NCBI GenBank assembly: GCA_032718475.1
Contig: JAUCBJ010007162.1
Coordinates: 1 to 64,000, forward strand
Direction: 5' to 3'
Length of the DNA stretch: 64,000 nucleotides
DNA from: Nemertoderma westbladi
Lineage: Eukaryota > Animalia > Xenacoelomorpha
Part shown: in pieces, positions 3,060-62,686 of the stretch
Position numbering within the stretch: the stretch's first letter is position 1
Layout of the letters: each line of letters begins with the position of its first letter
Notes under the pieces: generated by a model
Told to the model about the DNA's origin: nothing
Databases searched by the model: none
What the model saw: only the letters and a program-made list of their open reading frames with translations
Translations under genes and position numbers: made by a program

Positions 3060-3220
3060 GAAAACCATACAGTAGCTATGAATTGGTTACTAGGCAATAA
3101 TACTACATTTTGTATAGTTAGGCCTATTGCTGATCGAACGAAAACTGCCCTGGTCCATCATGTGAGGATCGAACCCACGACCTACTGGAGATGTGAATTC
3201 AAAGCAACCACTACACCAAC
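3060..3220 (-). mobile_element. tRNA-derived SINE head, interrupted by RTE copy 2
   Basis: Minus-strand A box TGGTGTAGTGG (3218-3208) and B box GGTTCGATCC (3175-3166), with no complete cloverleaf. The extent of the body is uncertain. Confidence 0.6.
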
Positions 3221-16222: not shown

Positions 16223-16248
16223 CCGCTCCCAGAAAATGGGATTTAAGT

Positions 16249-24332: not shown

Positions 24333-25691
24333 GTTTAGTTATACAGTTGAATGTCTACTACTATAGTTTCAGTTAAAGCAAGTCTAGTAATTCAGTATGA
24401 CCGCAAGCCTAGCGATTTATTACCGGTACCGTTACTCAGTGGAACGTGATATATATACAATATATTAGAATACCGGTATGCTTATAATATATAAGTATTA
24501 TTACAGACTAGATTTGTCACAGAGTACCGGTATATAATTTTAGCACAAATATATATATATATAGTAGGCCTATAATGAATACCGGTATACAGCTTACACT
24601 TATAGTATATAAGTATAATTCTGGACTAGAATTAATTACAGAGTACCGGTATGATTTCAGCTCAAATTTATAGAAATAAATATAATAAGCCTATGGTAAG
24701 TACCGGTATGTCAATTATTTTTAGAATAATTGAATTTCTGAATATTTTGGGGTTACTTCGTTACTTTAACTTACTTTATTACCGTTATTTAAGCAGTAGT
24801 CCAACTGACAGTGAGACCTAGTCGTTGTATGGCAGGCCTACTGTTTATAAATCGTTTGAGTTGATTTATAATAGATATATACCCGTTTAAAAGGGTTTTT
24901 GACAATGTTTGAAATAAATGTTATTATTTCTGGGGAAGTCACTACACAGAAGCTGAACGCTTCTCAGTGAAGTGCTATTTATTTGACACTAAAACTGATA
25001 ATTCTAATTTACCTAAGTTACTTAATACTACGAATTACTTACGATACGGGTGAGATTAATTCTCTAATTAAACACAACAAAATATTACGTACGAAATTTT
25101 TAGGGTAATTTTACAGGAAGTCTACAAACCAGTCCAACAAAGGGTTAGATTTCTGGCTATTACAAAGGACAGAGTACTACGGTGTTTAAATAATAAGTAG
25201 TAGTAAATATATTGTACTGTCCAGATAGGAAAATACCACCGCCTGACGACCTATAACCGTATCGCTATAGGTACTACGTTATGTATCACGGATTGTTCCT
25301 ATCCAGAAGTTAATAGAGCTAACGAATGTGCCTATCAACCACTTTACAATACAAAAATACTGCCTACACTAATTACTTCGGAAGGCACTGTACTCTAAAC
25401 CCTAAATTAGGTACAAGTACCGGTATAACAAATAATCAGTAGTTAAATATACTTGAACAGTTAAAAGAACCACGGCATCTGCTGGAGTGACCGAAGCACA
25501 AAGTCGTCAGTCTTTACCTACGCCAAGCAGCCCTGATGTAGTACCGGGGTTAGTTTAACTATAACGGTATGTATAACAAGCACAATTACTGTAGGAATAA
25601 ACTTGGGGACATGAATGTTGCGAATAATCGCATAAACTCTGAATAATAAATATTACGCTACCCGTACAGAATACTCAAACAAATACAAACC

Positions 25692-26213
25692 AAACGCTGG
25701 CAGACTACTATCAAGCCTAAACAAACTACTGTATGTGCAGATTCTGAAACTGTTAGTTAGTATGCGTGCTAACACGGTAGTACGACTTACTCTTTAAGAG
25801 GGGATTGACCTTACAGTGTTGACTGCCCCAACTTACTAACGGCACTTGATCAGACCAACTCTACACACGCAGCAATCCCTTCAGACCTAAAAATAGCTAG
25901 ACAACAATCCAGCCTACAAATATTTGAGTAATAACTATTACGGTACCTGAACAGACCACACAAACAAACACAGGCCAAAACACTGGCAGACTACGATCAA
26001 GCCTAAATAAACTACGGTATATGCAGACTCTGAAACTGTTAGTTAGTATGCGTGCTAACACGGTAGTACGACTTACTCTTTAAGAGGGGATTGACCTTAC
26101 AGTGTTGACTGCCCCAACTTACTAACGGCACTTTATCAGACAAACTCTACACACGCCGTAATCTCTCCAAACCCAACCACAGTCAGACAGCAGCTCAGCC
26201 TACAATTATCTGA
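25692..26213. repeat. ~286-bp-period direct duplication in the element B leader
   Basis: Block CTGGCAGACTAC...CAGCCTACAA is present twice, with a near-identical core. Confidence 0.9.
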
Positions 26214-26495
26214 ACAATCTGAGCAGGGTCACACGCCTTCTGCTCAATATTAGCCTACTAGTAAATAAAACTGACAGAAATAGACCTAAGTAAAATCTCA
26301 ATAAAAACCAGGCGTCCCCGATTTAATATCGAGACCTACCGGTATACAATAATCAAAATCGAATAATACTAATGTACTTGTACAGCAGTACCGGTACCGG
26401 TGATGACAGTTAGGCCTACTGACCTACAGAAGCACCGGTTCAGTTTTACCAGTCACTACGGTATTTTGCAACCTTATTGCCTACTGCAATAAGAT

Positions 26496-26699
26496 TGTAA
26501 ACCGTTACTGTTCTCCAGAACAGTATTAAACTGTATTTAATGCTTACACTTGCAACCTTATTGCCTACTGCAATAAGATTAATTATAAACTGTTACTGTT
26601 CGACAGAACAGTTAATAATTGATATAAACTGTTACTGTTCGTCAGAACAGTATTAAACTGTAGTTAATGCTTACACTGCAATACAATATAAACTGTTAC
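26496..26699 (-). promoter_or_regulatory. Element B PBS-position region: four copies of GAACA-GTAACAGTTTATA plus short hairpins; no TGG-type tRNA PBS
   Basis: 13-mer at 26687-26699, 26623-26635 and 26584-26596, with a variant at 26496-26508. Its complement lies in the LTRs at 27466-27478 and 15722-15734. Confidence 0.8.
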
Positions 26700-27966
26700 T
26701 GTTCGCGCTTTCGAAGACCTTTAGCAGTTTAACCTGCCAAAATTTATATGTCTTTTCGTTAATTAAAACCACTTTAGCATACGACAATAATTTATGCTAA
26801 TACGCAAAACATTAGCCGAAGTCAGCCCATGCGCGATCATTCACCCGATGGATCTACACCTGGGAGACTGAATTCGGATGCTTGAATTGTATTATTACAG
26901 TGTAAGGTTGCAGTGTATACCTAATGTATTATTCGATAGATCGTTAATAATTAATCTCTGACAGATATTATTGGCTTTCGGGAAATATTAACAGTTCCTT
27001 TAGGACGTGGCGCTTTATCTATTTAAACAGAACTAAGACTTATACTAAACGCAACGATACTGCTTATGATTAAAGTATAAAACGTATTCTTTAGGAAATA
27101 CTTTGTTACCAATCACAATCATACACACTATTCTGCCGACAGTCAGTACATTTGATCACACATAAAGAGAGCAGTAATTGACTCACGTAGGGTCTGCTAA
27201 ATAACATTGGATTCAATACACACCACATTAATATAAATCGCAATTGTTATATATAGCCGGTCTCTCTAACCTGTAGTGTTATCAAGAAAATTGGGAATTG
27301 GGTGATTTATCCGTATTATCCAAATAGCAATATTTCCATCAACAAATATTTACAATTAATAACTGACGGTAAAATAACAGTACAAACAATATGATTAATG
27401 AGTTAGGTTAGATGATTGATTTAAGTCAGATTTGATGAGTATGTTAATTAAGATTGATCAATTAGGTAACAGTTTATACTTTCGATAATTCAAGCAGTTT
27501 ACGGTACAGCAGTATCTATCCAAAAATGCCGGTGTTTCTGGCTTAGACAGCAATAACAACAAAGTAACAAGAAAAAACAGTAAGACTGAACACTCTCCTT
27601 ATGATCGGCAGAAAAGCTACACGTCGACAGGAAAAACCGCCCTGATTGGCCCAAGCCAAACAAAGAACCATGCGTCCAATGGCTGTTTCCATGTCAGCAA
27701 CCAGCTGCTAGATGTCGTAATATGAATCATCACGGCTAAGCTGTGAAAGGTGGTTGGTGCATTACAAGTTTTTTTGTCTTACCATGTCCGCTAAAACACG
27801 TATATAGCAGAATGATTTTTATGTCCGTTAAAACACCTGTAAAGGTACCTTGCGGGCGAGGGGAATATATATACAGTTAGAAAACCCTTTTTAGAGTATT
27901 CCAGCGCCTGGGGGGGAACTGGCCAGCATAGGCAAACGTATCAGTTATCCCACAAAAGCTTTTACA
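26700..27966 (-). repeat. Element B 5' LTR
   Basis: Direct repeat of 14956-16222; contains a minus-strand GCCAATCAG (CCAAT box) near 27642-27650. Confidence 0.97.
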
Positions 27967-28806
27967 ATCATATTTGTAAATAACGAGCAATGTGTATTTC
28001 TTATTATGAGAGTGAAATTCGATATATTAGTCGAATTTGTGTATTTTATATTTGAAGGATAATATGACTCAATATTTACCTACTTACATCGATTAATTTA
28101 CCTACCTACCATATTTGTAAATATATTAAACTCTAATATTGTTTGAAAGGTCGTTTAATACTTATTTAGTCTTACCAGAAGTGACTCAACAAACTTTATT
28201 ACTTTATATGAGGAAGTTGATCTACCCTTAATTAATTTCGTTTAATTTTAGTTAGAATGTTTAACGCATTTAATTGTATGTAGCGAGTATTTGATATCGA
28301 AGTCACCTTTGATTGTTGAAAGATTGTATATACTCTTTTCCATGCAACTTTCCGAAAAAACTCAATATTGTGTTACTCATAGAACGATTGTTGAACTTGT
28401 ACGTAATTTTAGGGAACGATTTTGCTGCACACACTAACTGCATATCGAAATCTTATATTTTTATCAGAGAATCATTCAATTTCAGTGCGTATGATAATTA
28501 TGCCTAACTCATGTTGTATACCACCGTGAACCTTGTTTTTATATGTTGCCTAGCAGCAGTTGTGGTAGTGCCGAACTCTCATTGGTAACTACCGGTGCAG
28601 GTATTCTTGCGTCCTGTTGGCCATTCTATTTTTGCTGTATCGCTTGTTTATATAGTCGATGTTCATCCCATTACTCTCAGGCATAACCTAACATCATATT
28701 AGCCTGTTGCGAGTCATGTAACTTGCAGGACTCATGATATTTCACCTTGCTGCATGCATTTTAACATCTTGCTGTATTACATTATTAAATATTATTGCTT
28801 TACTAT

Positions 28807-29108
28807 TGTTGATAAATATACAAGACAAGAGAACAAACAAACTCGATTTCCACACGGTTAGTGCTGACTGCGCCCTGTCTGTAATAGATTCGGTTCATTT
28901 TAGTGCGAGTGTGTGCGTCCATACTACTGCAATATTATTCCCCAACTAGTAACCATCATCTATTTACACTATGTATGCAGCACGAGTGAACTGTGCGCTT
29001 ACCACGCACTAAGTCCAACATAGTGTCCTACCTGTAATATATGTAAGTCACACGTACATTTACTCACCAACAACACAATATAACAGAACGGTTTACACGT
29101 AACTGTCA
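28807..29108 (-). repeat. Possible 3' LTR of the Gypsy remnant
   Basis: TG...CA bounded segment preceded on the minus strand by purine tract AAGGGAGGAAAG. No partner LTR was found. Confidence 0.35.
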
Positions 29109-29212
29109 CTTTCCTCCCTTGAAGCAGTTTATAAGCACCGAAGCTATATACTTACAGTGATTGATTGTACACTCAGTTCAGATATATATATTAGATAATA
29201 TATACATATACT

Positions 29213-29328
29213 TTCGTGAGTGTTCCTGCTATGCGGCAGGTACCCCAAGGCACTTGATTATGCTCATAAGAGTTACAGACAGACTCGTAGCAGCGAACAT
29301 GGGTTAGCCTCCCGTAAAAGCCTTGACA
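29213..29328 (+). repeat. ~115-bp interspersed repeat (second copy inverted at 45419-45534)
   Basis: TTCGTGAGT...CCTGCTATGCGGCAGGTA...GTAAAAGCCTTGACA matches the reverse complement of 45419-45534. Confidence 0.75.
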
Positions 29329-30530
29329 AAATGCATGGGGACACCAAAACTTGTAACGTCCCATTTGTGCATAGCAGTAGAGGCGGCATGGGTGAACTCC
29401 AATATTTGTAGACTTTGGACCAACTGGTGTAGCCATCCACGACGGAGTGGAAGTTGTTACCATCAGTGCGAAGAGATCTCCGGATGGCCGTGTGGCCTCA
29501 CGGTTGCATAGCTCAGGGTCCTTTGCGAGACTGGGGCATTTAATGAGGCAAGGCTCACATAACTTGACATTGGTCTGAACATCATTTGTCAGCCTGGGCC
29601 AGAACGTAGTGTCTTCTCGACTCCCTGGTGTGCATCATGACTACTACTAGTAGTAGTAGTAGTAGTACTACAATCCATTGTCCTTAGAGGATGAGGTCAC
29701 GGTTGGAGGAAAGTTCATTGTGTAGCGACCAAATGGGTTGGACACCCGAAAGTTGGAGAGATCCCAGTGGAAATCCAGAGCAAATGGCACCAAGGAGGTC
29801 GACGTAATTGGAGTGGAATAGAGAGCCCGAATGGAATAGATCGGGGTTGTCTCCATCCGGAATGAGTTCATCCCCCACAATCGTTGCAGCCACCTGTGGC
29901 ATCAAGGCACACTCATAGTGGCCCATGTCATTGACGAGATCATCCTTGGATGGATCATCAACAGGGGAATGGGATAGGGCCTCAGGAATCCTATGATTCT
30001 TCCCTTGCCTCCAGATTGTAGTAAACACAAATGAGGAAGTTTCAACTTGAGTTGTTAGATCTGCGAATTATCATTGGCATCCAACATGTGGTGGTCGAGG
30101 ATGGCTACCAGGGGGCTGGTGGTCTATCACCATTGTGAAATCTGGGAATCCCAAAAGGTAGAGATGGCTCATGTGGGCAACAGTGAGGTGCTCCAGCTCC
30201 ACCATCGCATAGCATGACTCGGTTTCTGAAACAAAATAAGAGCCACATTTTCCCAACATACAGTTGGTCCCATGCCGCTGGAGTAGCACTTATTCCAACC
30301 CATATTTCCTGGGGGCTGCAGTCATGAGCTTGGTGTCGAGCTCCAGATCAAACGAAGCAAGAATGGGTGGGAAAATGTGTGTGTGTTTGGTCGCCTTGAA
30401 TGCCCCTTGTGGTTAGAGTTATGGTCATAACTCGTATGGATTTTTGGAATGGAGGAGGGGTTGGAGTGGGGGACATAGTAGGTGAGATATCTGTCAAGAA
30501 TGGGATGAATTGCTCGACCATCCCAACAAT
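29329..30530 (-). pseudogene. Degraded Ty3/Gypsy pol remnant (RNase H to integrase)
   Basis: Fragments LLQRHG...FVSETESCYAMVELE...HLYLLGFPDFTMVIDHQP and FTTIWRQGKNHRIPEALS are Gypsy RNase H motifs. Many stops and frameshifts. Confidence 0.75.
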
Positions 30531-32018
30531 GTTACACCTTAGGTTTTACTTTCCAACTCTATCTGGAATGTTTTACTGACGTTCTGCTTACCTATACAGT
30601 ATGGAATGCATACTGTATGCATACTTACAGTATGGAATACATCATGAAATTTATTACCCATTTCACTGTTCTGTTCACCCCAGTCACTTGTCTGTCACTT
30701 GTCTCTCACACTCGCATTTCTTTCTCTCACATTAGGCTTCTCTTTTACATTCGAGATATATTTCACTCGGCCTCCCTTATATTAAGTTTTTTGAGCTCGC
30801 TTAGGATCTCAGATCTCAGCCTCCTCCACGTTTGCTTTTTCCATCTTGCGCCTACGATTTTCTATGACCCTTCTTGCTTTTGATCATGTAGCAGATCTTA
30901 TAGAGTTGGTGCTATGCATGCCCCTGGCCTGTCTTAATCCTGTCCCTTCCCCAATTTGCTAAGGTTCTTTTGCACTCACTATGTATGACCCTACAATAAC
31001 ATCACACATAATTAAATTCATATTACAAAGGCTTATTATTCCTGCCACCTGGTTAACGGCTAGTTACAGGGCTCTGTCACCCTTTCCTAGGTTATGCAAA
31101 TGTTCAAAGTACATGTATATAGTATCTATGTATATCGACACATATAGAGTATCTAATATTAGAGCTTTTATTTTACCCATTTCCTGTATTCGCCCATGGT
31201 GCGTCGCAGTCCATTTGGTGCAGGTGTGGCATTTTATCGGGTGTGCCTGGCCTGATATTCGCACTTTGTTCCCTGTTGATCGTTTGGTGCAGGATGTTCA
31301 TGTCTTCCTGGTTCGCCCCACATTGTTCCAGTATTGTCGCCTCCAGTTCTGACGTTGTGTTTCCTATAATAGAAGCGGTAGGTAGGCATAACAACCAGTG
31401 TTTTCATCCAGTATCCCACCTCGGATCTTTATTCGTTTGCATCTCTCATGCTTCCGACGAGGGAGCTGCTATGTGTAACAACTAGGGAGTTCATTTGAAG
31501 TCATCGCGGATTTCTTTCACCAAGAGTTTATAAATTTTCACTGTAAGTTATTACTTAACTCACCCGAGTTATTACTTTGCATAATACTGTTCTTTTGCGA
31601 CATAGTTTGTACTGGGCTGGAATTCCTTAGTTATTACTGTCAGGGGATCTAGGTTGGTCGACTTGTTGCGACTTGATTGGGCCTAGATACAAAGCGAGTT
31701 TGTTCTTAGCCTGTAGGTTTAAAGAAGAAAGGGGTTCTACTAGTTCTGGATAAAAACTCAGCCAGTTTCGTCTTTAACTTCTACGTATATTGTTAATAAA
31801 CAGTATTATAGTAAATATATCACATACAAATAACTAGCTAAATGTCTCCATGCCTGGCTTGTGTGGGAGTGAGACTGTGGTACCTATAATACTATAATTC
31901 AGTCTTTGTTCGTAATAACTATGGGTTTTACTGCAGAAACTACAGTCTAACAAGTGATTTACAATATCTAATGTATTTTACTATAATATATGTTTTCTAT
32001 CAGGACCTCTGTAGTTAG

Positions 32019-32492
32019 TGTATGCTATACCGGGCATAATCCGGGGTCTTTTCCCCTAATTTGGAATCTTATCCAACGGAGCGTTGCAAATAACTTGAGT
32101 TTATAAAAGGACAGTATAATAATAATATATAATAATATATAACTTGCAACAGCTCGTGAATTTAATGGCTCCTTAGGGGAGACCATTAGTTTTAGTAACA
32201 AAGTAATACAACTGCACAACTTCTATGAATAAAACCAATGAATGTTTAATATATATGAAGTATTATGCTACCAATATTAGCCCAGTAAGAATACTTAATC
32301 CCCAATATCCAATAGGAGGTCGTTTTCTTGTCCCCAGCTTACATTAATGGTTGATGCACCAGTACTGCCTGGTAGAAGGGGATAATTGGTGTTTCAAAAC
32401 AGCTGATGAGTAGGTAACAATACAGATTGGGTTTGGCATTTTCCTATAATAGGGGTTAGATGAATTGAATGTATTTTATGGAACCGAATACA
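32019..32492 (-). repeat. Element C 3' LTR
   Basis: Direct repeat of 42016-42480. Confidence 0.95.
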
Positions 32493-33284
32493 GTCCCCTA
32501 ATTTTTTGTGGTCAAGGACAAACAAAAAATTACCCAAATAAAAATAAGAACAACATGATAGAAATATACAAATTACGAAAAACTTGAAAATAATTGTGAA
32601 GGCACTTGAAGCGTACATAATATTTACTTACTGTCAAAATCGGATTCAATATAAACAAATATACTTGAAGCGTACAAACGCTACAATATCACTCTGCTAT
32701 AATATCGTATACGTAAACAGGCTTGATATATAGAATTGTACATACAATCAAATACTTCCAAAGCACTAATTAAATTTATAATCGCAATTAGTATAAATGA
32801 CCTCCTTCAACTCAAACAACAAGAATATCTAAAAACACTTTTATTTTCAATGGTGAAACATAATTAATCAATAACCATTTGGTTTAGACATACACCAGAT
32901 GACTAGGTGTTACGAAAAAAGTATGTTATATTACAGTATATAAACTGCACCAGAAATTACCTAAAGCTAGGGAGTATAATATTGGTTGTCAATTGCAAAT
33001 TTTCAACGCATAGTAATTTTGCTCAGAAAAACAAACAAGTGTTATGAATATATTATTTAATTAAATATTTAGTTATTATATTCTTATTTTATTGGAATGG
33101 AATGGAATGGGACGAACGTCTTCTTTGAGAATCAGTAGTTCTACTTACCTTTATTGATACATTCGAAACGCGAAGAACTGTCTGTGTTACAATTATGATA
33201 CTTACAGTACCACAGGAGATTTCGACGATCTTTAACAATAGCAACCATGAACCGTAACATTATTATAATTTGTTAATTACCTCA

Positions 33285-36200
33285 GTCAGAGTCAGAGTCA
33301 GAGTCAGAGTCAGAGTCAGAGTCAGAGTCAGAGTCAGAGTCAGAGTCAGAGTCAGAGTCAGAGTCAGAGTCAGAGTCAGAGTCAGAGTCAGAGTCAGAGT
33401 CAGAGTCAGAGTCAGAGTCAGAGTCAGAGTCAGAGTCAGAGTCAGAGTCAGAGTCAGAGTCAGAGTCAGAGTCAGAGTCAGAGTCAGAGTCAGAGTCAGA
33501 GTCAGAGTCAGAGTCAGAGTCAGAGTCAGAGTCAGAGTCAGAGTCAGAGTCAGAGTCAGAGTCAGAGTCAGAGTCAGAGTCAGAGTCAGAGTCAGAGTCA
33601 GAGTCAGAGTCAGAGTCAGAGTCAGAGTCAGAGTCAGAGTCAGAGTCAGAGTCAGAGTCAGAGTCAGAGTCAGAGTCAGAGTCAGAGTCAGAGTCAGAGT
33701 CAGAGTCAGAGTCAGAGTCAGAGTCAGAGTCAGAGTCAGAGTCAGAGTCAGAGTCAGAGTCAGAGTCAGAGTCAGAGTCAGAGTCAGAGTCAGAGTCAGA
33801 GTCAGAGTCAGAGTCAGAGTCAGAGTCAGAGTCAGAGTCAGAGTCAGAGTCAGAGTCAGAGTCAGAGTCAGAGTCAGAGTCAGAGTCAGAGTCAGAGTCA
33901 GAGTCAGAGTCAGAGTCAGAGTCAGAGTCAGAGTCAGAGTCAGAGTCAGAGTCAGAGTCAGAGTCAGAGTCAGAGTCAGAGTCAGAGTCAGAGTCAGAGT
34001 CAGAGTCAGAGTCAGAGTCAGAGTCAGAGTCAGAGTCAGAGTCAGAGTCAGAGTCAGAGTCAGAGTCAGAGTCAGAGTCAGAGTCAGAGTCAGAGTCAGA
34101 GTCAGAGTCAGAGTCAGAGTCAGAGTCAGAGTCAGAGTCAGAGTCGGAGTCGGAGTCGGAGTCGGAGTCGGAGTCGGAGTCGGAGTCGGAGTCGGAGTCG
34201 GAGTCGGAGTCGGAGTCGGAGTCGGAGTCGGAGTCGGAGTCGGAGTCGGAGTCGGAGTCGGAGTCGGAGTCGGAGTCGGAGTCGGAGTCGGAGTCGGAGT
34301 CGGAGTCGGAGTCGGAGTCGGAGTCGGAGTCGGAGTCGGAGTCGGAGTCGGAGTCGGAGTCAGAGTCAGAGTCAGAGTCAGAGTCAGAGTCAGAGTCAGA
34401 GTCAGAGTCAGAGTCAGAGTCAGAGTCAGAGTCAGAGTCAGAGTCAGAGTCAGAGTCAGAGTCAGAGTCAGAGTCAGAGTCAGAGTCGGAGTCGGAGTCG
34501 GAGTCGGAGTCGGAGTCGGAGTCGGAGTCGGAGTCGGAGTCGGAGTCGGAGTCGGAGTCGGAGTCGGAGTCGGAGTCGGAGTCGGAGTCGGAGTCGGAGT
34601 CGGAGTCGGAGTCGGAGTCGGAGTCGGAGTCGGAGTCGGAGTCGGAGTCGGAGTCGGAGTCGGAGTCGGAGTCGGAGTCGGAGTCGGAGTCGGAGTCGGA
34701 GTCGGAGTCGGAGTCGGAGTCGGAGTCGGAGTCGGAGTCGGAGTCGGAGTCGGAGTCGGAGTCGGAGTCGGAGTCGGAGTCGGAGTCGGAGTCGGAGTCG
34801 GAGTCGGAGTCGGAGTCGGAGTCGGAGTCGGAGTCGGAGTCGGAGTCGGAGTCGGAGTCGGAGTCGGAGTCGGAGTCGGAGTCGGAGTCGGAGTCGGAGT
34901 CGGAGTCGGAGTCGGAGTCGGAGTCGGAGTCGGAGTCGGAGTCGGAGTCGGAGTCGGAGTCGGAGTCGGAGTCGGAGTCGGAGTCGGAGTCGGAGTCGGA
35001 GTCGGAGTCGGAGTCGGAGTCGGAGTCGGAGTCGGAGTCGGAGTCGGAGTCGGAGTCGGAGTCGGAGTCGGAGTCGGAGTCGGAGTCGGAGTCGGAGTCG
35101 GAGTCGGAGTCGGAGTCGGAGTCGGAGTCGGAGTCGGAGTCGGAGTCGGAGTCGGAGTCGGAGTCGGAGTCGGAGTCGGAGTCGGAGTCGGAGTCGGAGT
35201 CGGAGTCGGAGTCGGAGTCGGAGTCGGAGTCGGAGTCGGAGTCGGAGTCGGAGTCGGAGTCGGAGTCGGAGTCGGAGTCGGAGTCGGAGTCGGAGTCGGA
35301 GTCGGAGTCGGAGTCGGAGTCGGAGTCGGAGTCGGAGTCGGAGTCGGAGTCGGAGTCGGAGTCGGAGTCGGAGTCGGAGTCGGAGTCGGAGTCGGAGTCG
35401 GAGTCGGAGTCGGAGTCGGAGTCGGAGTCGGAGTCGGAGTCGGAGTCGGAGTCGGAGTCGGAGTCGGAGTCGGAGTCGGAGTCGGAGTCGGAGTCGGAGT
35501 CGGAGTCGGAGTCGGAGTCGGAGTCGGAGTCGGAGTCGGAGTCAGGAGTCAGAGTCAGAGTCAGAGTCAGAGTCAGAGTCAGAGTCAGAGTCAGAGTCAG
35601 AGTCAGAGTCAGAGTCAGAGTCAGAGTCAGAGTCAGAGTCAGAGTCAGAGTCAGAGTCAGAGTCAGAGTCAGAGTCAGAGTCAGAGTCAGAGTCAGAGTC
35701 AGAGTCAGAGTCAGAGTCAGAGTCAGAGTCAGAGTCAGAGTCAGAGTCAGAGTCAGAGTCAGAGTCAGAGTCAGAGTCAGAGTCAGAGTCAGAGTCAGAG
35801 TCAGAGTCAGAGTCAGAGTCAGAGTCAGAGTCAGAGTCAGAGTCAGAGTCAGAGTCAGAGTCAGAGTCAGAGTCAGAGTCAGAGTCAGAGTCAGAGTCAG
35901 AGTCAGAGTCAGAGTCAGAGTCAGAGTCAGAGTCAGAGTCAGAGTCAGGGTCAGGGTCAGGGTCAGGGTCAGGGTCAGGGTCAGGGTCAGGGTCAGGGTC
36001 AGGGTCAGGGTCAGGGTCAGGGTCAGGGTCAGGGTCAGGGTCAGGGTCAGGGTCAGGGTCAGGGTCAGGGTCAGGGTCAGGGTCAGGGTCAGGGTCAGGG
36101 TCAGGGTCAGGGTCAGGGTCAGGGTCAGGGTCAGGGTCAGGGTCAGGGTCAGGGTCAGGGTCAGGGTCAGGGTCAGGGTCAGGGTCAGGGTCAGGGTCAG

Positions 36201-37744
36201 GGTCAGGGTCAGGGTCAGGGTCAGGGTCAGGGTCAGGGTCAGGGTCAGGGTCAGGGTCAGGGTCAGGGTCAGGGTCAGGGTCAGGGTCAGGGTCAGGGTC
36301 AGGGTCAGGGTCAGGGTCAGGGTCAGGGTCAGGGTCAGGGTCAGGGTCAGGGTCAGGGTCAGGGTCAGGGTCAGGGTCAGGGTCAGGGTCAGGGTCAGGG
36401 TCAGGGTCAGGGTCAGGGTCAGGGTCAGGGTCAGGGTCAGGGTCAGGGTCAGGGTCAGGGTCAGGGTCAGGGTCAGGGTCAGGGTCAGGGTCAGGGTCAG
36501 GGTCAGGGTCAGGGTCAGGGTCAGGGTCAGGGTCAGGGTCAGGGTCAGGGTCAGGGTCAGGGTCAGGGTCAGGGTCAGGGTCAGGGTCAGGGTCAGGGTC
36601 AGGGTCAGGGTCAGGGTCAGGGTCAGGGTCAGGGTCAGGGTCAGGGTCAGGGTCAGGGTCAGGGTCAGGGTCAGGGTCAGGGTCAGGGTCAGGGTCAGGG
36701 TCAGGGTCAGGGTCAGGGTCAGGGTCAGGGTCAGGGTCAGGGTCAGGGTCAGGGTCAGGGTCAGGGTCAGGGTCAGGGTCAGGGTCAGGGTCAGGGTCAG
36801 GGTCAGGGTCAGGGTCAGGGTCAGGGTCAGGGTCAGGGTCAGGGTCAGGGTCAGGGTCAGGGTCAGGGTCAGGGTCAGGGTCAGGGTCAGGGTCAGGGTC
36901 AGGGTCAGGGTCAGAGTCAGAGTCAGAGTCAGAGTCAGAGTCAGAGTCAGGGTCAGGGTCAGGGTCAGGGTCAGGGTCAGGGTCAGGGTCAGGGTCAGGG
37001 TCAGGGTCAGGGTCAGGGTCAGGGTCAGGGTCAGGGTCAGGGTCAGGGTCAGGGTCAGGGTCAGGGTCAGGGTCAGGGTCAGGGTCAGGGTCAGGGTCAG
37101 GGTCAGGGTCAGGGTCAGGGTCAGGGTCAGGGTCAGGGTCAGGGTCAGGGTCAGGGTCAGGGTCAGGGTCAGGGTCAGGGTCAGGGTCAGGGTCAGGGTC
37201 AGGGTCAGGGTCAGGGTCAGGGTCAGGGTCAGGGTCAGGGTCAGGGTCAGGGTCAGGGTCAGGGTCAGGGTCAGGGTCAGGGTCAGGGTCAGGGTCAGGG
37301 TCAGGGTCAGGGTCAGGGTCAGGGTCAGGGTCAGGGTCAGGGTCAGGGTCAGGGTCAGGGTCAGGGTCAGGGTCAGGGTCAGGGTCAGGGTCAGGGTCAG
37401 GGTCAGGGTCAGGGTCAGGGTCAGGGTCAGGGTCAGGGTCAGGGTCAGGGTCAGGGTCAGGGTCAGGGTCAGGGTCAGGGTCAGGGTCAGGGTCAGGGTC
37501 AGGGTCAGGGTCAGGGTCAGGGTCAGGGTCAGGGTCAGGGTCAGGGTCAGGGTCAGGGTCAGGGTCAGGGTCAGAGTCAGGGTCAGAGTCAGAGTCAGGG
37601 TCAGGGTCAGGGTCAGGGTCAGGGTCAGAGTCAGAGTCAGGGTCAGGGTCAGGGTCAGGGTCAGGGTCAGGGTCAGGGTCAGGGTCAGGGTTAGGGTCAG
37701 GGTCAGGGTCAGGGTCAGGGTCAGGGTCAGGGTCAGGGTCAGGG
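33285..37744 (+). repeat. Hexanucleotide array (GTCAGA)n/(GTCGGA)n/(GTCAGG)n, ~4.5 kb, ~740 units
   Basis: Directly visible blocks. On the minus strand it reads (Asp-Pro)n then (Asp-Ser)n, continuing from ...[13 protein letters not shown]. One 1-bp insertion near 35545 and one TTAGGG at 37691. Confidence 0.98.
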
Positions 37745-40700
37745 ACATCATCAGGCCCATTGGGTTGAGAATCTCGGGGGTTATAAGGATCCCGATAAGG
37801 ACGACCATTGTTGCCTGAGTTACGGTCCCCATCTGGGTCTCTATCTGGATATTCAGGTCGTCTCCCCGTCATGCCTGAATTTAATGGCACCTGTAGGGCC
37901 ACGGCCACCAAACCCATAGTTATTTGAGGATTCCCGTTCTGATGGATTCACTAAGGGCTGAGTATCTGCCCATTGGTGAGTGCTGTGTCGTTCGGCGTAA
38001 AATGACCCCCTTCGTGGTCCACGTGACACTTGGAATGCTTCAGTGTGTATAGGCTGGTTTCTATGCCGGGATTCAATGGGTGGGTTGAGTATATTGGAAT
38101 AGTCGATTTTTCTATATGCTCCAGCCACACATGACTGGTTTCGCAACGGTGTCTGTGCAATAGAAAACCGCGGGGTTGTTGTGCCTGCTTTAGAAACAAT
38201 CCGCTCCCTTACTTTATCAATTTTTTGGGTCCCAGTAGCAAAATCAGTACGAGTCTGGGTTTCCATGATTGGGGTACTCGCATGCTGCACCAGATGTTCG
38301 ACAGCTGTGTTGATACTAGTTAGAACTTCAGTTAGTTGTTGATGTGTCACTGGACGATCTTCAGGGATCGACGGCATAGCATTATTTTCAAAACCGCTGG
38401 TCTTAAAATTACCCCCACCCTTTTTAAAAATTCTTGTATTTTTTGGTTGAGAATGGCACGGATGGAGAGATTCCATCTCATCCGACCACTCCTCCTCAGA
38501 GTCAGTAGCTAATTTATTAAACCTCCTGCTGGAAGTAGGACATTTTGTACTGGCCAATGGTTCTATATGACAATGAGTGTATTTATTCGCTATTTGATGT
38601 AAATTCACCGTGGGCGGGATATCTACAGTAGGGGAAATAACTACTGTAGAAGGAATATCTACCGTAGGGCGATTATCTACAGTAGAAGAAACATTTACAG
38701 TAGTTGGAATATGTACTGTAGAAGGAATATCTACAATAGATAGGATATCCACAGTAGAAGGAATACGTACTGTCGATGGAATATCTACAGTAGAAGGAAT
38801 ACCTACAGTAGAAGGAATACGTACTGTAGATGGAATATCTACAGTAGAAGGAATATCTACAGTAGAAGGAATACGTACTGTAGATGGAATATCTGCAGTG
38901 GAAGGAATATCTACAGTAGAAGGAATACGTACTGTAGATGGAATATCTACAGTGGAAGGAATACCTACAGTAGAAGGAATACGTACTGTAGATGGAATAT
39001 CTACAGTAGAAGGAATATCTACAGTAGAAGGAATACGTACTGTAGATGGAATATCTGCAGTGGAAGGAATATCTACAGTAGAAGGAATACGTACTGTAGA
39101 TGGAATATCTACAGTGGAAGGAATATCTACAGAAGACGGAATACGTACTGTAGATGGAATATCTACAGTGGAAGGAATATCTACAGTAGAAGGAATACGT
39201 ACTGTAGATGGAATATCTACAGTGGAAGGAATATCTACAGAAGAAGGAATACGTACTGTAGATGGAATATCTACAGTGGAAGGAATATCCACAGTAGAAG
39301 GAATACGTACTGTAGATGGAATATCTACAGTGGAAGGAATATCTACAGTAGAAGGAATACGTACTGTAGATGGAATATCTACAGTAGAAGGAATATCTAC
39401 AGTAGAAGGAATATCTACTGTAGGTGGGATATCATAGTCTAATAAAGTGTTAGAACTCTGTCTAGAGTTATTCAGAATACGGCTGTCAGGATACAGAATT
39501 TCACAATTTGTGGATAATTCCACCAATGACATTGGTGGTGCCTCCAGGTCTACAATGGCATCTGTTTCCAAGGCGTTATTGCACACTGGTTTCCAGACGC
39601 TGCCTGTAGTCATCGTGTTGACTCCGGTAACGTGCATGTTGCAAATCAATTTCTTCTTTACGTCTGTTTGCTCGTTCCGATATTTCAGCTTTCTTCAAAA
39701 GCTCCCTCTCGACTCGTTCCACCTCTTCCTTCCTTTGCCGAGCCCGCCGCTCAATTTCTCTTATCTTCTGCTTAGCTTGCCATACTCTTTGCTGCTCGTC
39801 TTCCTCTGCCTCATGCAGAGTCTGTCGTTCAGCTTCCTTTCGGCGTTCGATCTCCCTTCTCTTCTGCTTAGCTAGCCATACTCTTTGCTGCTCGTCTTCC
39901 TCTGCATCATGCAAAGCTTGGCGTTCAGCTTCCTTGGCATGCTCGATACGATCAGCCGCCTGGGAAACCAGAAGCTCATTCTCCAGTTGTCTGTTTTCTC
40001 TCTCTGCAGAATGTAACAGGCGCAAAGCCTCCTCAGCTTGTCGATTTGCCAATATCGATATATTTCCCTCTGCTACCCTTCTAAGTCTAGCTGATTTTGT
40101 GGAACTAGTCCTAGAAATATTAGATGTTACAGCTGACAGTCTACCAATACTACCGCCCCCCTCTGGTTCAATTTCCGTTCGGTGTAGTCTGGACCTCTGA
40201 GTAATTAAATTTGGAGACAGTAAGTCTGAGGTCGTGTCGTGCTGTCGTGTTACTGGATTTATATGAGTAGGACGAGGAATGGAAGAGAAAGGCATTGGAA
40301 ATTTATCCCATGTTAATGATTGTGCCGGACTATGGATTACCATAGCTGTTCCTGTACTCACCTCCGACACCTCAACTACAGGATCTACATGGTGTGAACT
40401 GACCCAGTTTACTAACTTTTGATACCTACCACGACAACTTACGTGTTTCGAATAAGCTTGTTGGAATTCGTTAGCATTTCCTCCTTCAGTCTCATAATAA
40501 AGCGACTGCTTCCGATATTGTTTTAGAACCTGGTCCCATCTGGTATTCATTCTATCCAGCTTTCTAAGAAATTCTTCACCGCACTCACCTGGATTAGTTG
40601 TTCTTCTTCGCTGCTCCAATTCCAATATATCGACATTCATGTTGTGATAAAGTTGTCCCAGACTACGGTTGATAGCCGCAATGTCGACGGTGTTCGTAGC

Positions 40701-40994
40701 TGATCTAGGATGGTTTGAGAGTCGAGACGGACGAGTTCTTTCAGTATTGAGACCGTCCCCGGGCCCGGCAGCAGCGGTTTGGCGTAGCGATTCCCGGTTA
40801 GAACTCGGCTCACGAATAAGAGTTTCATTGAGAGATATTAAGCTCCCTCCGATCGATATATTGTCATCGCTTGGTATGTTGGGCACATTTCTTGACTCCT
40901 CCATTTCCCTTTGTGGGCTTAAAGGAAGATTCATGATAGGCTGACCATCCGTAGAAGGGATGGCATCTAGTCTAGGGGGTGTATGATTTGACAT
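37745..40994 (-). pseudogene. Element C gag-like ORF (N-terminal, coiled-coil and linker part), two frameshifts
   Basis: Overlapping ORFs 39576..40994, 37853..39649 and 35542..37917. A Ser/Arg-rich SNISRTSSTKSARLRR segment followed by a coiled coil resembles BEL/Pao Gag N-termini and element B's layout. No capsid core, knuckle or pol motifs seen, so the family assignment is an inference. Confidence 0.65.
38610..39430 (-). repeat. In-frame 18-bp minisatellite (PSTVDI/PSTVRI) with 54-bp higher-order period
   Basis: About 45 units visible in ORF 37853..39649. Confidence 0.95.
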
Positions 40995-41930
40995 TATTTT
41001 ATTGAAATTATATTTCTTTACTTAGTTTGACTTAGTTATTTAAAATTGGTTCACTTTAATGTTTCTCTAATTTAAATTTAAAATTAAATTTAAATTATAT
41101 TCCGTGGTATCTAAAATGTATAAAATTAACACTGCAATTGGCAACCTGTAGAACAAATGAATACCTACAGTAAATAAAGGAAAAATAACCTGTAGTATTA
41201 AAATATAATTAACTTATAAATCGAGATGACACCAAGGTAGTAGTCATCAAACCAAACCAGTCTAGATTTGGCTCTATGGGGCGCTATACGCGGATATTTA
41301 AAACTATGGATCACTATTTATACGTTACTTATTAGCTTCAGTGGTGCCTTCACTAATATGTTAAGTGATATAAATCAAATTATAACCTAAAAAAAATAGA
41401 AATAAATTATAATACGAGGTTCAAACCTGACCCCGGTCCCAAAATACACCTGGTTTGTAATGGAGACACTTTACAAACCAGGGGTGAACGTAGAAGTACC
41501 TTCTCACCCTCCGGCGTCGCGTGGCGATAAATCTTCTTGCAAACTCAAACCTGGCCCAAGAGAGAGTCCCTGCCCTACCAAGTCATCGGTCCCCGAGACC
41601 GATTCATGTTCAAATAGAGCCCACCGACAAAGAAGGAAAAGGTAAGACTAAACGTTGAGAGTCAGGAAAGCATAGAAAAATATAACCTACAGTTGTAATA
41701 ATTGCACCACAATTAAAACAGAAAGTTATACTTATCGTTAGTTTTCCTTCGCCTCCGATAGAAGATGAGAGTTTGAAAACTTGAGAGTTTGAGAACTTGA
41801 GAAACTTGAGAACCTTATGAACTTCAGAGAATTTGGAGACTTTTGAGAGCGTGCGACACTTGAGAATTTGTTAACTTCAGAGAACTTTGAAAACTTAGAG
41901 AACTTCAGATTGTGAGAAACTTGAGAACTG

Positions 41931-42015
41931 TTAAATTCACTGTTCCAGTAGCCCATTAAATTCACTGTTCCAGTAGACCATTAAATTCACTGTTCCAGTA
42001 GACCATTAAATTCAC
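41931..42015 (-). promoter_or_regulatory. Element C PBS-position region: 25-bp tandem repeat carrying ACA-GTGAATTTAATGG
   Basis: 13-mer at 42003-42015, 41978-41990 and 41953-41965, partial at 41931-41940. Its complement lies in the LTRs at 42143-42155 and 32156-32168. Confidence 0.8.
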
Positions 42016-42480
42016 TGTATGCTATACCGGGCATAATCCGGGGTCTTTTCCCCTAATTTGGAATCTTATCCAACGGAGCGTTGCAAATAACTTGAGTTTA
42101 TAAAAGGACAGTATAATAATAATATATAACTTGAAACAGCTCGTGAATTTAATGGCTCCTTAGGGGAGACCATTAGTTTTAGTAACAAAGTAATAAAACT
42201 GCACAACTTCTATCTATGAATAAAACCAATGAATGTTTAATATATATGAAGTATTATGCTACCAATATTAGCCCAGTAAGAATACTTAATCCCCAATATC
42301 CAATAGGAGGTCGTTTCCTTGTCCCCAGCTTACATTAATGGTTGATGCACCAGTACTGCCTGGTAGAAGGGGATAATTGGTGTTTCAAAACAGCTGATGA
42401 GTAGGTAACAATACAGATTGGGTTTGGCATTTTCCTATAGGGGTTAGATGAATTGAATGTATTTTATGGAACCGAATACA
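42016..42480 (-). repeat. Element C 5' LTR
   Basis: Direct repeat of 32019-32492. Confidence 0.95.
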
Positions 42481-44381
42481 GTTAGGGTAGTATATGTACC
42501 AATAGTTCTAGGCTCTGATAGGTTGTTATTATTAGTTACAAATATTATCAGTAGCAGTAACAATATATGACTAAGTGGTGTTTGAGTAATCTATTACATG
42601 CATTGTATTCACTCCAAGAAGATTCTAGCACAATTATATTAGTGGTTCGTCTATAGCGATTAAACCCTGTACAACTTTATGCACAATGGATAAACAATAT
42701 AACACAGTTGTGTATATCAATGGCATAGCTTGAGCAACATGTTGTTGTGACTGTTTGTCTGCAAGGCCTTAATTGCTATCTTTCCTTTAATATGTAGCAG
42801 TCCCTGTATTGGTGTATGATAGTAACTGCCGAGAAAATGGCTGATGGCTAATAAGGTGGTATAATGAATTCTGTGATGGTGAAGTGCATATAAGGATAAT
42901 CCCATAAAAGGAATCCCACCAATGTCACCACTAGACAAAGTTGCTTTATAAAAATAATGATAATAATCAGAAAGCTGTATAAGAAAATCAATCACAGAAA
43001 GGAGTAAGTTTTTTATGTTCTCAACAACCTTGAGAGATTGTTGCGTTTAGCGTTGATCGCGAATTGCACACAAAGATATATTTTGCCGCAAAAGCTTTTA
43101 CATAACCAGCTTATTTAGGGATATCTTCATAAATTCACTGCGATATATGTATTGAAATGTGCCTCATTTGTAGAATTTTCGAAATTCAATTTACAACCTC
43201 ACAGCTTGCATCATCATATAGCTTTCCTCACGAAGACGCTTTGCATCATTGATTAATTACAAGGGATTAACACTGAACTACAATTGCGTATAAAGAGTAT
43301 ATGCAAGATAGGAGGAACATTACATTGTGTTACTTACTCGGACAGGATTATACAATATTATCACATCACAGCGTGTCACCGTTGGTATGTATTAGACATT
43401 ATATCCTTTGTTATATGGTTCATTCCATACTAAAATTGTACTGCGAAACATCACGCAGTTTACAAATAATATATTGTTACAGGTTTGCATTAATTTACCG
43501 CAGTAATAATCACATATTTATAAAAGTTACAATTTTATTTTATACCATGCCAGAAGCATGCTCATCAACTGTTTCAGCAATCTGACCGTAACAGGAATAC
43601 CGGTAAGAGTTGGTCACGGTACTGATTCCAGAGGTCCATAGGAGTATAATATGCATATATACAGTATATAAATGGTTTATATTTTAACTTACACTATCAA
43701 CATACTTCATTTGCAAATGAAATGAGTTGTGATTCTGGCTTCACAAAAATCCTAATCACATCCGCCGAAGGGCAAGAGTTAAGCGAAAAAGAGAGTTGGT
43801 GCAGGTTGAGCTTTTTACAAGTATAGTTTGATTTGATTCCATTTAGACCCACTTTATTGTGTTGTGGGGCTCTGAGCTACGGAGATAATGAGCAAGGAAG
43901 CTGGGTTTATTGATTTAGATTATAGATTTGGTCATTTACCAAGATTTCCTAGGTCGTCTTCATTGTCTGCTGCTATCACAGTATGACAGGTTCACAAAGA
44001 TCAAATTGGGTCTAATTTTGACTTAGAGAATTGTGAGGGCAGTAAGGGCAATCTTAGCCACAGGAAACCAACCACTTTGATCAATTTTTTATCAACTTTG
44101 ATTACTTTGTCTTTTTCACATTTCTTTGCAGCATTCGAAATTCCCATTGTCCACAGTCATATTTCAGTTGCAACAGTAGCTTATTCATCAACCATATATT
44201 AATCTTTGCAGCTGGATGGAACCATGTTAATAGGAAGCTCACGGATAAGAGGTTCTGAAGAAGTGCTGACGTCAGATTGCTTCCTCCAAATGACACATCT
44301 TTCTAATTGGTCTTTTGTAGATACCAACAAAAGTTTTGACTTCAGTGGATCGAACCAATCCAGATTTATCTGGGAACGTCT

Positions 44382-45418: not shown

Positions 45419-46848
45419 TGTCAAGGCTTTTACAGGTGGCTAACCCTACATCAGCCAAAGGAGTTCGTTTGTAGCCCTTGTGAGTACTATCAAATGCCTT
45501 GGGATACCTGCCGCATAGCAGGAGTACTCACGAATGTTTGTATATTTATATATTATCTAATATATATATCTGGTCTGGACGTATGATTAATTACTTCAAG
45601 TGTAAGCGTGACTTATTTATATAGCAAGTAGGACGCTATATTGAATCTAGTGCGTGGTAAGCACACAGTTCACTCGTACTGAACACATTATAGTATTAAT
45701 AAATTATAGTTACAAGTTGGGGAATAATATTGCAGTATTACGGATGCCTACACTCGCACTAAATGAACCGAATCTATTACAGACAGGTCACAGTAAGCAC
45801 TCACTGGGTGGAAGGCAAAATGGTATGATCCTTGGTCTTGTATCTTCATAAACAACATAGACAAATAATATACACAAATAATATAAACAGGAAGTTACAC
45901 GTTCGTGGGGCCTTCGCGCAGGACGAGGCTCAGTTATCAGATACAGATTAAAATTGAGCGATAGGCTATAATTTACTATACCATACTCAGGTGTTGAAAT
46001 TACGCCAAGCGCGCCAGCATGGTAGAATACGGGCTGATGGGCGTCAGTATTACAGCCGCCAAATGAAGGTTTTACCGGCAAAGCCTCATAAAATAATCAA
46101 AAACGGCCCTTAACGCATTCCAAATCTTTATCCGGGACATAGGGAATGTGTTCATTGTCTTTGAGGATGCTCAAGATAATTACTCAGACCATGTCTCTGT
46201 GGTGTCATCATTTAAAGCTTATTTGATCCTGATCCCCCTGTACACAAAAAGCAACATTCCCATTATTCTATAAAGATACTGAGACAGGCTCGATGCTGGA
46301 GTATTAGTTACTGAAACGATTTAAACAGTGTTTAAAGATTCTGTCAACTCAGAAATATCAAAGATATCACCTACGTGATCTGGCAACTTACAAGAGAGAG
46401 AAATGAACCTTGATCATCTCAATATGTTTGATTATGAGACAATCCAGCAGTATCGAATGCAGCCAGGAAATAAATCCCTACCATTAAGTGAATAAAGCCT
46501 TCAGAGAATGTAAAATGGTCTTTCACCATAGTGTCAAGGTCACAACTCTGGTGCAAGCATGGAAGATAATTGGAAAATGAGTTAGTAGCTATGAGTACTA
46601 GGTGGAAGGAAGAACCACATTTCCACTGTCCGAGTTCGCTCGCCCTAGTAGTAAATTTCTATATATGCTTTCTATATGTAATAATATTGCTTCAATAACA
46701 TTCATTATATATATATATATATATATATTATATATTATTGAACAAATTCATAGTTAACTAATCCATAGATTCTTAGAACTGTTATATAACTGTATTGGAA
46801 CTGATAAATAACTTTAGTTTCAATATTTTGGTTAAAAGTGGTGATATA

Positions 46849-58484: not shown

Positions 58485-58710
58485 GGGAATATATTTTCCG
58501 GTTTTGATGACAACTTTCTAGCACGAGCCGAAGCATTGGCTGCTGTTGATGCCTGCGCGAAAATACAGTCAGGCAATGCGGCACAGCTGGGCGCCACAAT
58601 AAAGGACGACCCAGGGGCCATGATAATGGCAAACAAATACACCGGGTCTGGGAGGTACAGCCAGGAGCAAGGGATGATGGGTCTAACTAGTCCAGAACAC
58701 ACACAGTTCG
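58485..58710 (+). CDS. POU4: POU class IV transcription factor, exon 2 (POU-IV box)
   Basis: Acceptor TTCTTACAG|. GNIFSGFDDNFLARAEALAAVD is the class IV upstream homology motif. Donor G|GTGAGT, phase 1. Confidence 0.93.
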
Positions 58711-61700
58711 GTGAGTGTCTAATACAGAACACACACAGTTCGGTGAGTGTCTATTACAGAACACATACAGTTCGGTGAGTGTCTAATACAGAACACACAC
58801 AGTTCGGTGAGTGTCTATTACAGAACACATACAGTTCGGTGAGTGTCTAATACAGAACACACACAGTTCGGTGAGTGTCTAATACAGAACACACACAGTT
58901 CGGTGAGTGTCCTAATACAGAACACACACAGTTCGGTGAGTGTCTAATACAGAACACACACAGTTCGGTGAGTTTCTAATACAGAACACACACAGTTCGG
59001 TGAGTGTCCTAATACAGAACACACACAGTTCGGTGAGTGTCTAATACAGAACACACACAGTTCGGTGAGTGTCTAATACAGAACACATACACAGTTCGGT
59101 GAGTGTCTAATATAGAACACACACAGTTCGGTGAGTATCTAACACAGAACACACACAGTTCGGTGAGTGTCGAATACAGAACACACACAGTTCGGTCAGT
59201 GTCTAATACAGAACACATACAGTTCGGTGAGTGTCCTAATACAGAACACACACAGTTCGGTGAGTGTCTAATACAGAACACACACAGTTCGGTGAGTGTC
59301 TAATACAGAACACAGACAGTTCGGTGAGTGTCTAATGCAGAACACACACAGTTCGGTGAGTGTCTAATACAGAACACACACAGTTCGGTGAGTCTCTAAT
59401 ACAGAACACATACAGTTCGGTGAGTGTCTAATACAGAACACACACAGTTCGGTGAGTGTCTAATACAGAACACACACAGTTCGGTGAGTGTCTAATACAG
59501 AACACACACAGTTCGGTGAGTGTCTAATACAGAACACACACAGTTCGGTGAGTATCCTAATACAGAACACACACAGTTCGGTGAGTGTCTAATACAGAAC
59601 ACACACAGTTCGGTGAGTGTCTAATACAGAACACACACAGTTCGGTGAGTGTCTAATACAGAACACACACAGTACGGTGAGTGTCTAATACAGAACACAC
59701 ACAGTTCGGTGAGTGTCTAATACAGAACACACACAGTTCGGTGAGTGTCTAATACAGAACACACACAGTTCGGTGAGTGTCTAATACAGAACATACACAG
59801 TTCGGTAAGTGTCTAAATAAGAACACACACAGTTCGGTGAGTGTCTAATACAGAACACACACAGTTCGGTGAGTGTCTAATACAGAACACACACAGTTCG
59901 GTGAGTGTCTAATACAGAACACACACAGTTCGGTGAGTATCTAATACAGAACACACACAGTTCGGTGAGTATCTAATACAGAACACACACAGTTCGGTGA
60001 GTATCTAATACAGAACACACACAGTTCTGTGAGTGTCTAATATAGAACACACACACTTCGGTGAGTATCTAATATAGAACACACACAGTTCGGTGAGTAT
60101 CTAATACAGAACACACACAGTTCGGTGAGTGTCTAATACAGAACACACACAGTTCGGTGAGTGTCTAATACAGAACACACACAGTTCGGTGAGTGTCTAA
60201 TACAGAACACACACAGTTCGGTGAGTGTCTAATACAGAACACACACAGTTCGGTGAGTGTCTAATACAGAACACACACAGTTCGGTGAGTCTCTAATACA
60301 GAACACACACAGTTCGGTGAGTGTCTAATACAGAACACACACAGTACGGTGAGTGTCAAATACAGAACACACACAGTTCGGTGAGTGTCTAATACAGAAC
60401 ACACACAGTTCGATGAGTGTCTAATACAGAACACATACACAGTTCGGTGAGTGTCTAATACAGAACACACACAGTTCGCTGAGTGTCTAATACAGAACAT
60501 ACACAGTTCGGTAAGTGTCTAAATAATAACACACACAGTTCGGTGGGTGTCTAATACAGAACACACACAGTTCGGTGGGTGTCTAATACAGAACACACAC
60601 AGTTCGGTGAGTGTCTAATACAGAACACACACAGTTCGGTGGGTGTCTAATACAGAACACACACAGTTCGGTGGGTATCTAATACAGAACACACACAGTT
60701 CGGTGAGTGTCTAATACAGAAAACACACAGTTCGGTGAGTGTCTAATACAGAACACACACAGTTCGGTGAGTCTCTAATACAGAACACACACAGTTCGGT
60801 GAGTGTCTAATACAGAACACACACAGTTCGTTGGGTGTCTAATACAGAACACACACAGTTCGGTGGGTGTCTAATACAGAACACACACAGTTCGGTGAGT
60901 GTCTAATACAGAACACACACAGTTCGGTGAGTGTCTAATACAGAACACACACAGTTCGGTGAGTCTCTAATACAGAACACACACAGTTCGGTGAGTGTCT
61001 AATACAGAACACGTACATAGTTCGGTGAGTGTCTAATACAGAACACACACAGTTCGGTGAGTGTCTAACTAAGAACACACACAGTTCGGTGAGTGTCTAA
61101 TACAGAACACACACAGTTCCGTGAGTGTCTAATACAGAACACACACAGTTCGGTGAGTGTCTAACTAAGAACACACACAGTTCGGTGAGTGTCTAATACA
61201 GAACACACACAGTTCGGTAAGTGTCTAATACAGAACACACACAGTTCGGTGAGTGTCTATTACAGAACACACACAGTTCGGTGAGTGTCTAATACAGAAC
61301 ACACACAGTTCGGTGAGTGTCTAATACAGAACACACACAGTTCGGTGAGTGTCTAATACAGAACACACACAGTTCGGTGAGTGTCTATTACAGAACACAT
61401 ACAGTTCGGTGAGTGTCTAATACAGAACACACACAGTTCGGTGAGTGTCTATTACAGAACACATACAGTTCGGTGAGTGTCTAATACAGAACACACACAG
61501 TTCGGTGAGTGTCTAATACAGAACACACACAGTTCGGTGAGTGTCCTAATACAGAACACACACAGTTCGGTGAGTGTCTAATACAGAACACACACAGTTC
61601 GGTGAGTGTCTAATACAGAACACACACAGTTCGGTGAGTGTCCTAATACAGAACACACACAGTTCGGTGAGTGTCTATACAGAACACACACAGTTCGGCG

Positions 61701-62650: not shown

Positions 62651-62686
62651 TCTTTCTATAAAGAACTGTAATTATATTTGTTTCAG

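Follow-up and report, generated by a model that had tools for sequence, protein, structure and literature searches.

Element C lies on the minus strand of the window (the whole 64,000-nt stretch of DNA analyzed here) and has the makeup of a non-autonomous LTR retrotransposon, with two TG...CA LTRs, a target duplication and a PPT. Its main parts are as follows:

32019–42480, minus strand: element C, a non-autonomous LTR retrotransposon with a 5-bp target duplication, CTAAC (42481–42485 and 32014–32018)
42016–42480, minus strand: 5′ LTR of C, 465 nt, TGT...ACA
32019–32492, minus strand: 3′ LTR of C, 474 nt, TGT...ACA
32493–32507, minus strand: purine-rich tract at the PPT position, before the 3′ LTR
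35542–41021, minus strand: gag-like coding remnant with a 54-bp array (frames 41021–39576, 39694–37853 and 37947–35542)
33284–37742, strand not given: 6-bp tandem array, 743 copies

The two LTRs are 95.8% identical over 478 columns and differ mostly by small indels. No RT, RNase H or integrase was found in C, which is without pol, and its ORF1 had no match in Pfam, in a homologue search (264–842 aa only), in profile comparison, in the Atlas or in the neighboring element B. The 743-copy array prolongs the reading frame of C. From the architecture that C shares with B, and from its neighborhood, we consider it probable that C is a defective LTR retrotransposon of BEL/Pao origin.

The original prediction held that the 5′ LTR of C is followed directly by a 13-mer whose exact complement lies inside both LTRs, and that this junction is reiterated in 25-bp units. 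All coordinates were confirmed, as were the three full 13-mers, the single partial one and the GAACA that precedes the downstream copies in both B and C:

42003–42015, minus strand: 13-nt stretch at the primer-binding position of C, offset 0 from the 5′ LTR, GT start
41931–42018, minus strand: 25-bp tandem units (further full 13-mers at 41978–41990 and 41953–41965; 10-nt partial copy at 41931–41940)
42143–42155, minus strand: complementary site in the 5′ LTR, the predicted self-primer, at position 326 of 465; ends in AC and holds ATTAAA
32156–32168, minus strand: complementary site in the 3′ LTR, the exact complement of the 13-mer

The primer-binding position of C thus has a perfect 13-nt pairing partner within its own LTR. 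Allowing at most one mismatch, the 13-mer or its complement occurs six times, against 0.12 expected by chance. The match ends at the LTR edge and reaches neither the LTR end nor base 14, so the complement is not a copy of the junction. TRF reported a period of 25 and 3.5 copies for 41931–42018; a contig in run X4, which skips 50 nt of this array, was set aside as a possible assembly collapse. There is also a hint of a sibling LTR family, in which the block around the site is kept and ~106 nt upstream cannot be aligned.

Element B, on the same strand, offers a second instance of this architecture:

14956–27966, minus strand: element B, with LTRs at 26700–27966 and 14956–16222 (1267 nt, 99.8% identical) and target duplication ATGAT
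26687–26699, minus strand: 13-nt stretch at the primer-binding position of B, with further copies at 26623–26635 and 26584–26596
27466–27478, minus strand: complementary site in the 5′ LTR of B, at position 489 of 1267, with its 3′ LTR copy at 15722–15734
19662–24338, minus strand: ORF of B with BEL/Pao gag (DUF1759), zinc knuckles and protease; RT absent

BEL/Pao-type Gag/Pol homology is present in B: DUF1759 is recognized at E 3.5e-12, and PF05380 or PF18701 is present in 25 of the 26 homologues, the remaining one having PF03564 plus RT. B contains neither RT nor integrase, and both B and C are non-autonomous. The closest representatives of B are ~30% identical to it, and the lineage in the window is very divergent (~30% identity at best). 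Among viral contigs, relatives were found neither for the gag–protease of B nor for the BEL/Pao alignment described below. A second long ORF of B (16249–18216, 655 codons), before the 3′ LTR, has no Pfam match.

The LTRs of B and C had been described as unrelated, and indeed they have only 13–15-nt chance matches in common; each 13-mer matches the LTR of the other element over only 5–6 nt. Complementarity of this kind is rare in shuffled LTRs, a comparison that the original prediction itself proposed: in dinucleotide-shuffled LTRs the complement was present in 2 of 30,000 for C and 0 of 15,000 for B at offset 0, and in 10 of 30,000 and 20 of 15,000, respectively, at any offset from 0 to 10. 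The poly(A)-signal-like hexamer attributed to the LTR-side motif of both elements exists in C (ATTAAA); the site in B starts with TATAAA, which is neither AATAAA nor ATTAAA. Self-priming in B would need a 766-nt strong-stop product. Within B, a hairpin precedes each downstream copy of the stretch (26584–26660) and includes the GT of that copy (−9.3 kcal/mol for the first); in the folding model these hairpins would mask the GT of the downstream copies. The equivalent in C is weak (−2.5).

Elsewhere in the window, element A (8948–11798) retains BEL/Pao gag, protease and an RT remnant, is 46–48% identical to the B protein and has no LTR pair that we could find; in a quick tree it forms a long unplaced branch. 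A perfect inverted repeat, whose 121-bp arms are a single base apart (8771–9013), lies at the left edge of a BEL/Pao gag remnant and is either a fold-back event or an assembly artefact. A LINE RT fragment with DUF6451 is present twice in tandem (339–1742 and 3219–4621, 98% identical), and two arrays stand out, a 6-bp array of 639 copies (4767–8598) and a 32-bp satellite of 123 copies (58693–62653). Two neighboring ORFs, of 157 and 156 codons, lie in the same frame with a single stop between them (13285–14229) and have no Pfam match, and a degenerate region in which Gypsy-like integrase and RNase H motifs were recognized by eye (28768–30067) has an inverted relative at 45419–45894. ARAGORN found no tRNA in the window.

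We searched for relatives with a six-protein BEL/Pao alignment and obtained 79 metagenome loci, from the best 80 of 555 confirmed ones, a sample that leans to relatives of one query and is without a tRNA-primed control group. The 79 loci fall into 61 DNA clusters, and 37 of them contain a long direct repeat. As a test set we used 12 loci whose repeat marks the LTR's 3′ end (in L053 it runs to the contig end); three of these LTR ends were shifted by hand by 1–2 nt, and L014 (internal duplication) and L066 (the family of L053) were left out. The search covered offsets 0–8 and did not require a GT start. A perfect complement of 10–13 nt was present in the element's own LTR in 10 of the 12 loci. 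Control 40-mers from the same element matched at that length in 0 of 150 draws in nine loci and in 1 of 150 in the tenth. GT begins the stretch in eight of the ten positive loci; the exceptions are L004, whose match is longer by one base, and L064, which is an old copy without the G. Of the two misses, L056 turns positive after correction of its LTR end, and L062, as read by eye, has a 12-nt pairing that includes one G–U.

Blind scans, which required GT after an LTR-like end and a match of at least 10 nt, returned matches in 24 of 56 and 12 of 37 loci (34 of 60 overall), each of a length equaled by 0–2 of 20 shuffles. The other 26 of the 60 scanned loci gave no match of at least 10 nt; many contigs break inside the LTR. 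One locus (L003:1–15887) consists of tandem BEL/Pao copies with a period of 6138 and 100% identity, a tandem insertion or an assembly loop.

From these loci we assembled a table of 26 families, comprising 24 loci together with B and C. Cluster duplicates (L003, L015, L024, L057 and L066) and doubtful or far-placed loci (L016, L049, L050 and L065) were dropped, as were L064 and L062; the table is partly circular, because 14 of the 26 families were chosen by the match itself. The 26 families have 25 distinct stretches, 10–13 nt long and most commonly 11 nt (14 of 26). When each stretch was compared with the LTR region of every other family, only 16 of 650 cross-pairs matched, nearly all between families with a near-identical stretch. 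The covariation that had been noted between B and C, and taken to make chance unlikely, therefore extends far beyond them, with distant BEL/Pao families each carrying their own complement. The traits shared by B and C fared unevenly: the GT start recurs where it was not imposed, whereas the zero offset does not generalize, the stretch lying 0–4 nt from the LTR in most relatives. Reiteration had also been counted as evidence for the mechanism. Tandem copies of the stretch occur in B and C only and are absent from all 24 relatives, so they carry no such weight; the 25-bp copies of C are most likely slippage duplications peculiar to the B/C lineage.

In 20 of these 26 families there is a poly(A) hexamer downstream of the site, and in 2 of 26 the hexamer is part of the site itself; this places the site near the start of R and counts against poly(A) occlusion as a general purpose. 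A pyrimidine–purine step marks the 5′ edge of the site in 19 families, against 13 expected, a weak hint of a start site; a TATA-like motif at −40 to −20 is absent from all 26. Tf1-type self-priming is said to involve a U5-IR-like stem-loop before the PBS. No general U5 hairpin was found here, 13 of the 26 families falling below the shuffle mean (z of −0.76 for C and +0.56 for B), and the 26 families likewise yielded no general U5–leader stem.

In half of the ten positive loci, the complement exists only across a GT–AG junction, that is, after removal of a 71–164-nt intron within the LTR. Decoy junctions built from antisense splice signals gave matches of at most 8 nt. A match across a splice junction cannot stem from DNA inversion, which argues that the pairing is maintained on RNA. 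Two loci, L013 and L015, share 90% identity over 7.1 kb, and their sole difference at the site is an exact 168-nt intron (L013:7770–7960; L015:7106–7130); the intron is real, regardless of whether L015 is a copy that lacks it or its record was built from RNA. By this measure the table holds 18 split and 8 unsplit families, the unsplit call for L019 being uncertain because its contig may begin inside an intron. Split and unsplit families are interspersed on a quick tree (7 changes, no clustering relative to shuffles), from which no clade or ancestry should be read.

Element C is unsplit, and its 5′ LTR has three further features:

42156–42333, minus strand: predicted intron-like stretch, with the LTR's sole GTRAG donor at 42333 and AAG/GAG ending just before the site
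42335–42341, minus strand: 7-nt echo of the start of the site, one base ahead of the donor
42150–42175, minus strand: strongest hairpin in the LTR, −11.9 kcal/mol (0 of 2000 shuffles)

The donor lies 178 nt upstream of the complementary site. Splicing of an intron that ends immediately before the site may persist in C, or C may hold a relic of the split form; with such an intron, the site need not be the first bases of the RNA. The echo was found post hoc, arose in 110 of 200,000 random draws and is peculiar to C, none of the 8 other unsplit elements having it. Given upstream sequence, which the 3′ LTR copy in an RNA has, the hairpin is predicted to cover the first 6 nt of the site and could thereby stop that copy from competing. 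Folding with all copies present gives the first 13-mer only 13–20% of the pairing, which suggests that the tandem copies of C compete with it.

These observations lead us to propose that C probably primes its own reverse transcription without a tRNA, in a Tf1-like manner, and that many distant BEL/Pao elements likely start copying from a piece of their own RNA. The RNA would start at the site or upstream of it, and the site would fold onto the stretch after the 5′ LTR. With RNase H from an autonomous partner acting in trans, the RNA would then be cut after the conserved AC, and RT would extend the freed 3′ end into U5. During plus-strand synthesis the paired segment would be written back into the next primer-binding site, so that both sides stay matched while their letters drift. 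In many relatives, an LTR intron would have to be spliced to form the site; such an intron would be retained, since its end lies 5′ of the cut and its sequence is copied from the 3′ LTR. Both C and B have the unsplit form. The strict Tf1 version, in which the RNA begins with the site, is possible and to us slightly doubtful, judging from sequence: a first exon of 4–7 nt is unusual, and the primer may therefore not be the very first RNA bases, unlike in Tf1.

We lean, by a little, toward a broader history in which a large BEL/Pao branch exchanged its tRNA primer for a self-primer put together by the host spliceosome out of two exons within the LTR; splicing would thereby gate replication. The unsplit B, C and L015 would then have arisen by intron loss or a junction shift, and the LTR of C would keep a relic in its donor and in the echo of the primer's start.

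The original prediction had left both self-priming and poly(A) occlusion open, and our analysis favors the former. Under the latter, or a variant in which the pairing controls packaging or dimerization, the pairing would act as an RNA switch hiding the poly(A) signal of the 5′ LTR, and another RNA would prime. The site of C, which holds ATTAAA with no further AATAAA or ATTAAA downstream, would suit this account, as might the TATAAA that begins the site in B, which neither hexamer follows within 300 nt. The position of the hexamer across the 26 families speaks against it, and a switch requires neither a partner at 0–4 nt from the LTR, nor an AC end, nor a constant length of 10–13 nt; it would also leave the elements without any primer site. 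We regard it as unlikely. We give similarly little credence to a primer formed by a polyadenylated RNA 3′ end, or by a separate short LTR transcript acting in trans, in place of the 5′ end of the same molecule. Any RNA bearing the site could pair, and hexamer and site coincide in C; however, the hexamer follows the site in most families, a spliced 3′ LTR copy would lose the intron in every cycle, yet 18 of 26 families retain it, and the 3′ copy of the site in C lies, by prediction, half inside a hairpin. A short LTR transcript might still act in trans.

Priming of C by a host tRNA at an offset TGG start (42005), 10 nt past the LTR, with the complement as a by-product, appears very improbable. 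To our knowledge, the acceptor stem that this TGG needs is not in standard cytosolic tRNA sets. The ICTV does describe Belpaoviridae as tRNA-primed (PMC8742986), but B has no TGG at this position and none of the 12 relatives has one in the first 11 nt after the LTR. A TGG start at the LTR edge, as an 18-nt tRNA-Arg or tRNA-Gly PBS would need, was seen in neither B, C nor the 12 relatives, and the 13-nt complement would be left unexplained. Finally, C is full of repeat expansions and its LTR is AT-rich, circumstances in which chance or a one-off DNA inversion copying 13 bases might be suspected; the shuffles, the end of the match at the LTR edge, the matches across splice junctions and the family-specific covariation make this scarcely credible.

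Self-priming, which we prefer over these alternatives, departs from the account of the ICTV, where Belpaoviridae have an 18-nt PBS for host tRNA-Arg or tRNA-Gly and their replication is called poorly understood (PMC8742986). B resembles this family in its BEL/Pao gag and protease, its TG...CA LTRs, its PPT and its 5-bp target duplication; it differs in that no tRNA PBS is seen in B, C or the sampled relatives, and B and C have no RT or integrase. The main text of three BEL/Pao surveys contains no PBS, tRNA or priming terms (PMC3118150, PMC554778, PMC6238403), and the accessible portions of four further papers make no link between self-priming and BEL/Pao (PMC6934838, PMC3601003, PMC5443660, PMC3286476). 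A full-text literature search, with subscription papers, Repbase entries and supplements outside its scope, returned no report of BEL/Pao self-priming or of a splice-built primer. The mechanism proposed here is Tf1-like, and the elements stand outside the Tf1/sushi group: a PBS by the 5′ LTR complementary to the element's own LTR is present, and the Ty3/gypsy Pol and chromodomain integrase of that group are absent, B and the 79 loci being BEL/Pao and C being without pol. The C. elegans BEL element Cer7 has reportedly been proposed to encode its own tRNA-like primer, a different mechanism.

The closest parallels are Tf1 and Tf2 of S. pombe, Tj1, and the Tf1/sushi and Tcn1 chromoviruses of Ty3/gypsy, in which, according to the text available, a short PBS after the 5′ LTR is complementary to the element's own LTR and not to a tRNA (PMC7175516, PMC4600332, PMC6317226). 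In Tf1, the same partial record has the first 11 bases pairing with the PBS and RNase H cutting between bases 11 and 12 (PMC7175516); 11 nt is also the commonest length in our families. Part of another account describes the Tf1 primer sequence as copied into DNA at the cDNA end (PMC11042837), and copying of this type would keep both sides matched in BEL/Pao elements. Tf1 uses the first bases of its RNA, a position that the BEL/Pao site may share. The BEL/Pao elements differ from the Tf1 group in belonging to another superfamily, in often having the site split by a spliceosomal intron, in a site that always ends in AC in the unconstrained set and, for B and C, in a repeated PBS. In the TAR lineage of Ty1/copia (Houba, Osr-1), self-priming was predicted from the same kind of complementarity; those are plant copia elements, and an intron-split site is not mentioned in the portion available (PMC6317226).

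As far as the accessible text goes, self-priming has been shown for Tf1 (PMC7175516), whereas for related chromoviruses and a single lineage of plant copia elements it has been predicted (PMC6317226). If much of BEL/Pao self-primes as well, tRNA-free priming arose in a third LTR superfamily; silencing by tRNA fragments would then miss such elements, and they would be misjudged by annotation pipelines in which a tRNA PBS is required. Self-priming predicts a 10–13-nt element-derived RNA with an AC end on the first DNA product, and a splice-built primer, if real, would tie host splicing directly to retroelement replication.
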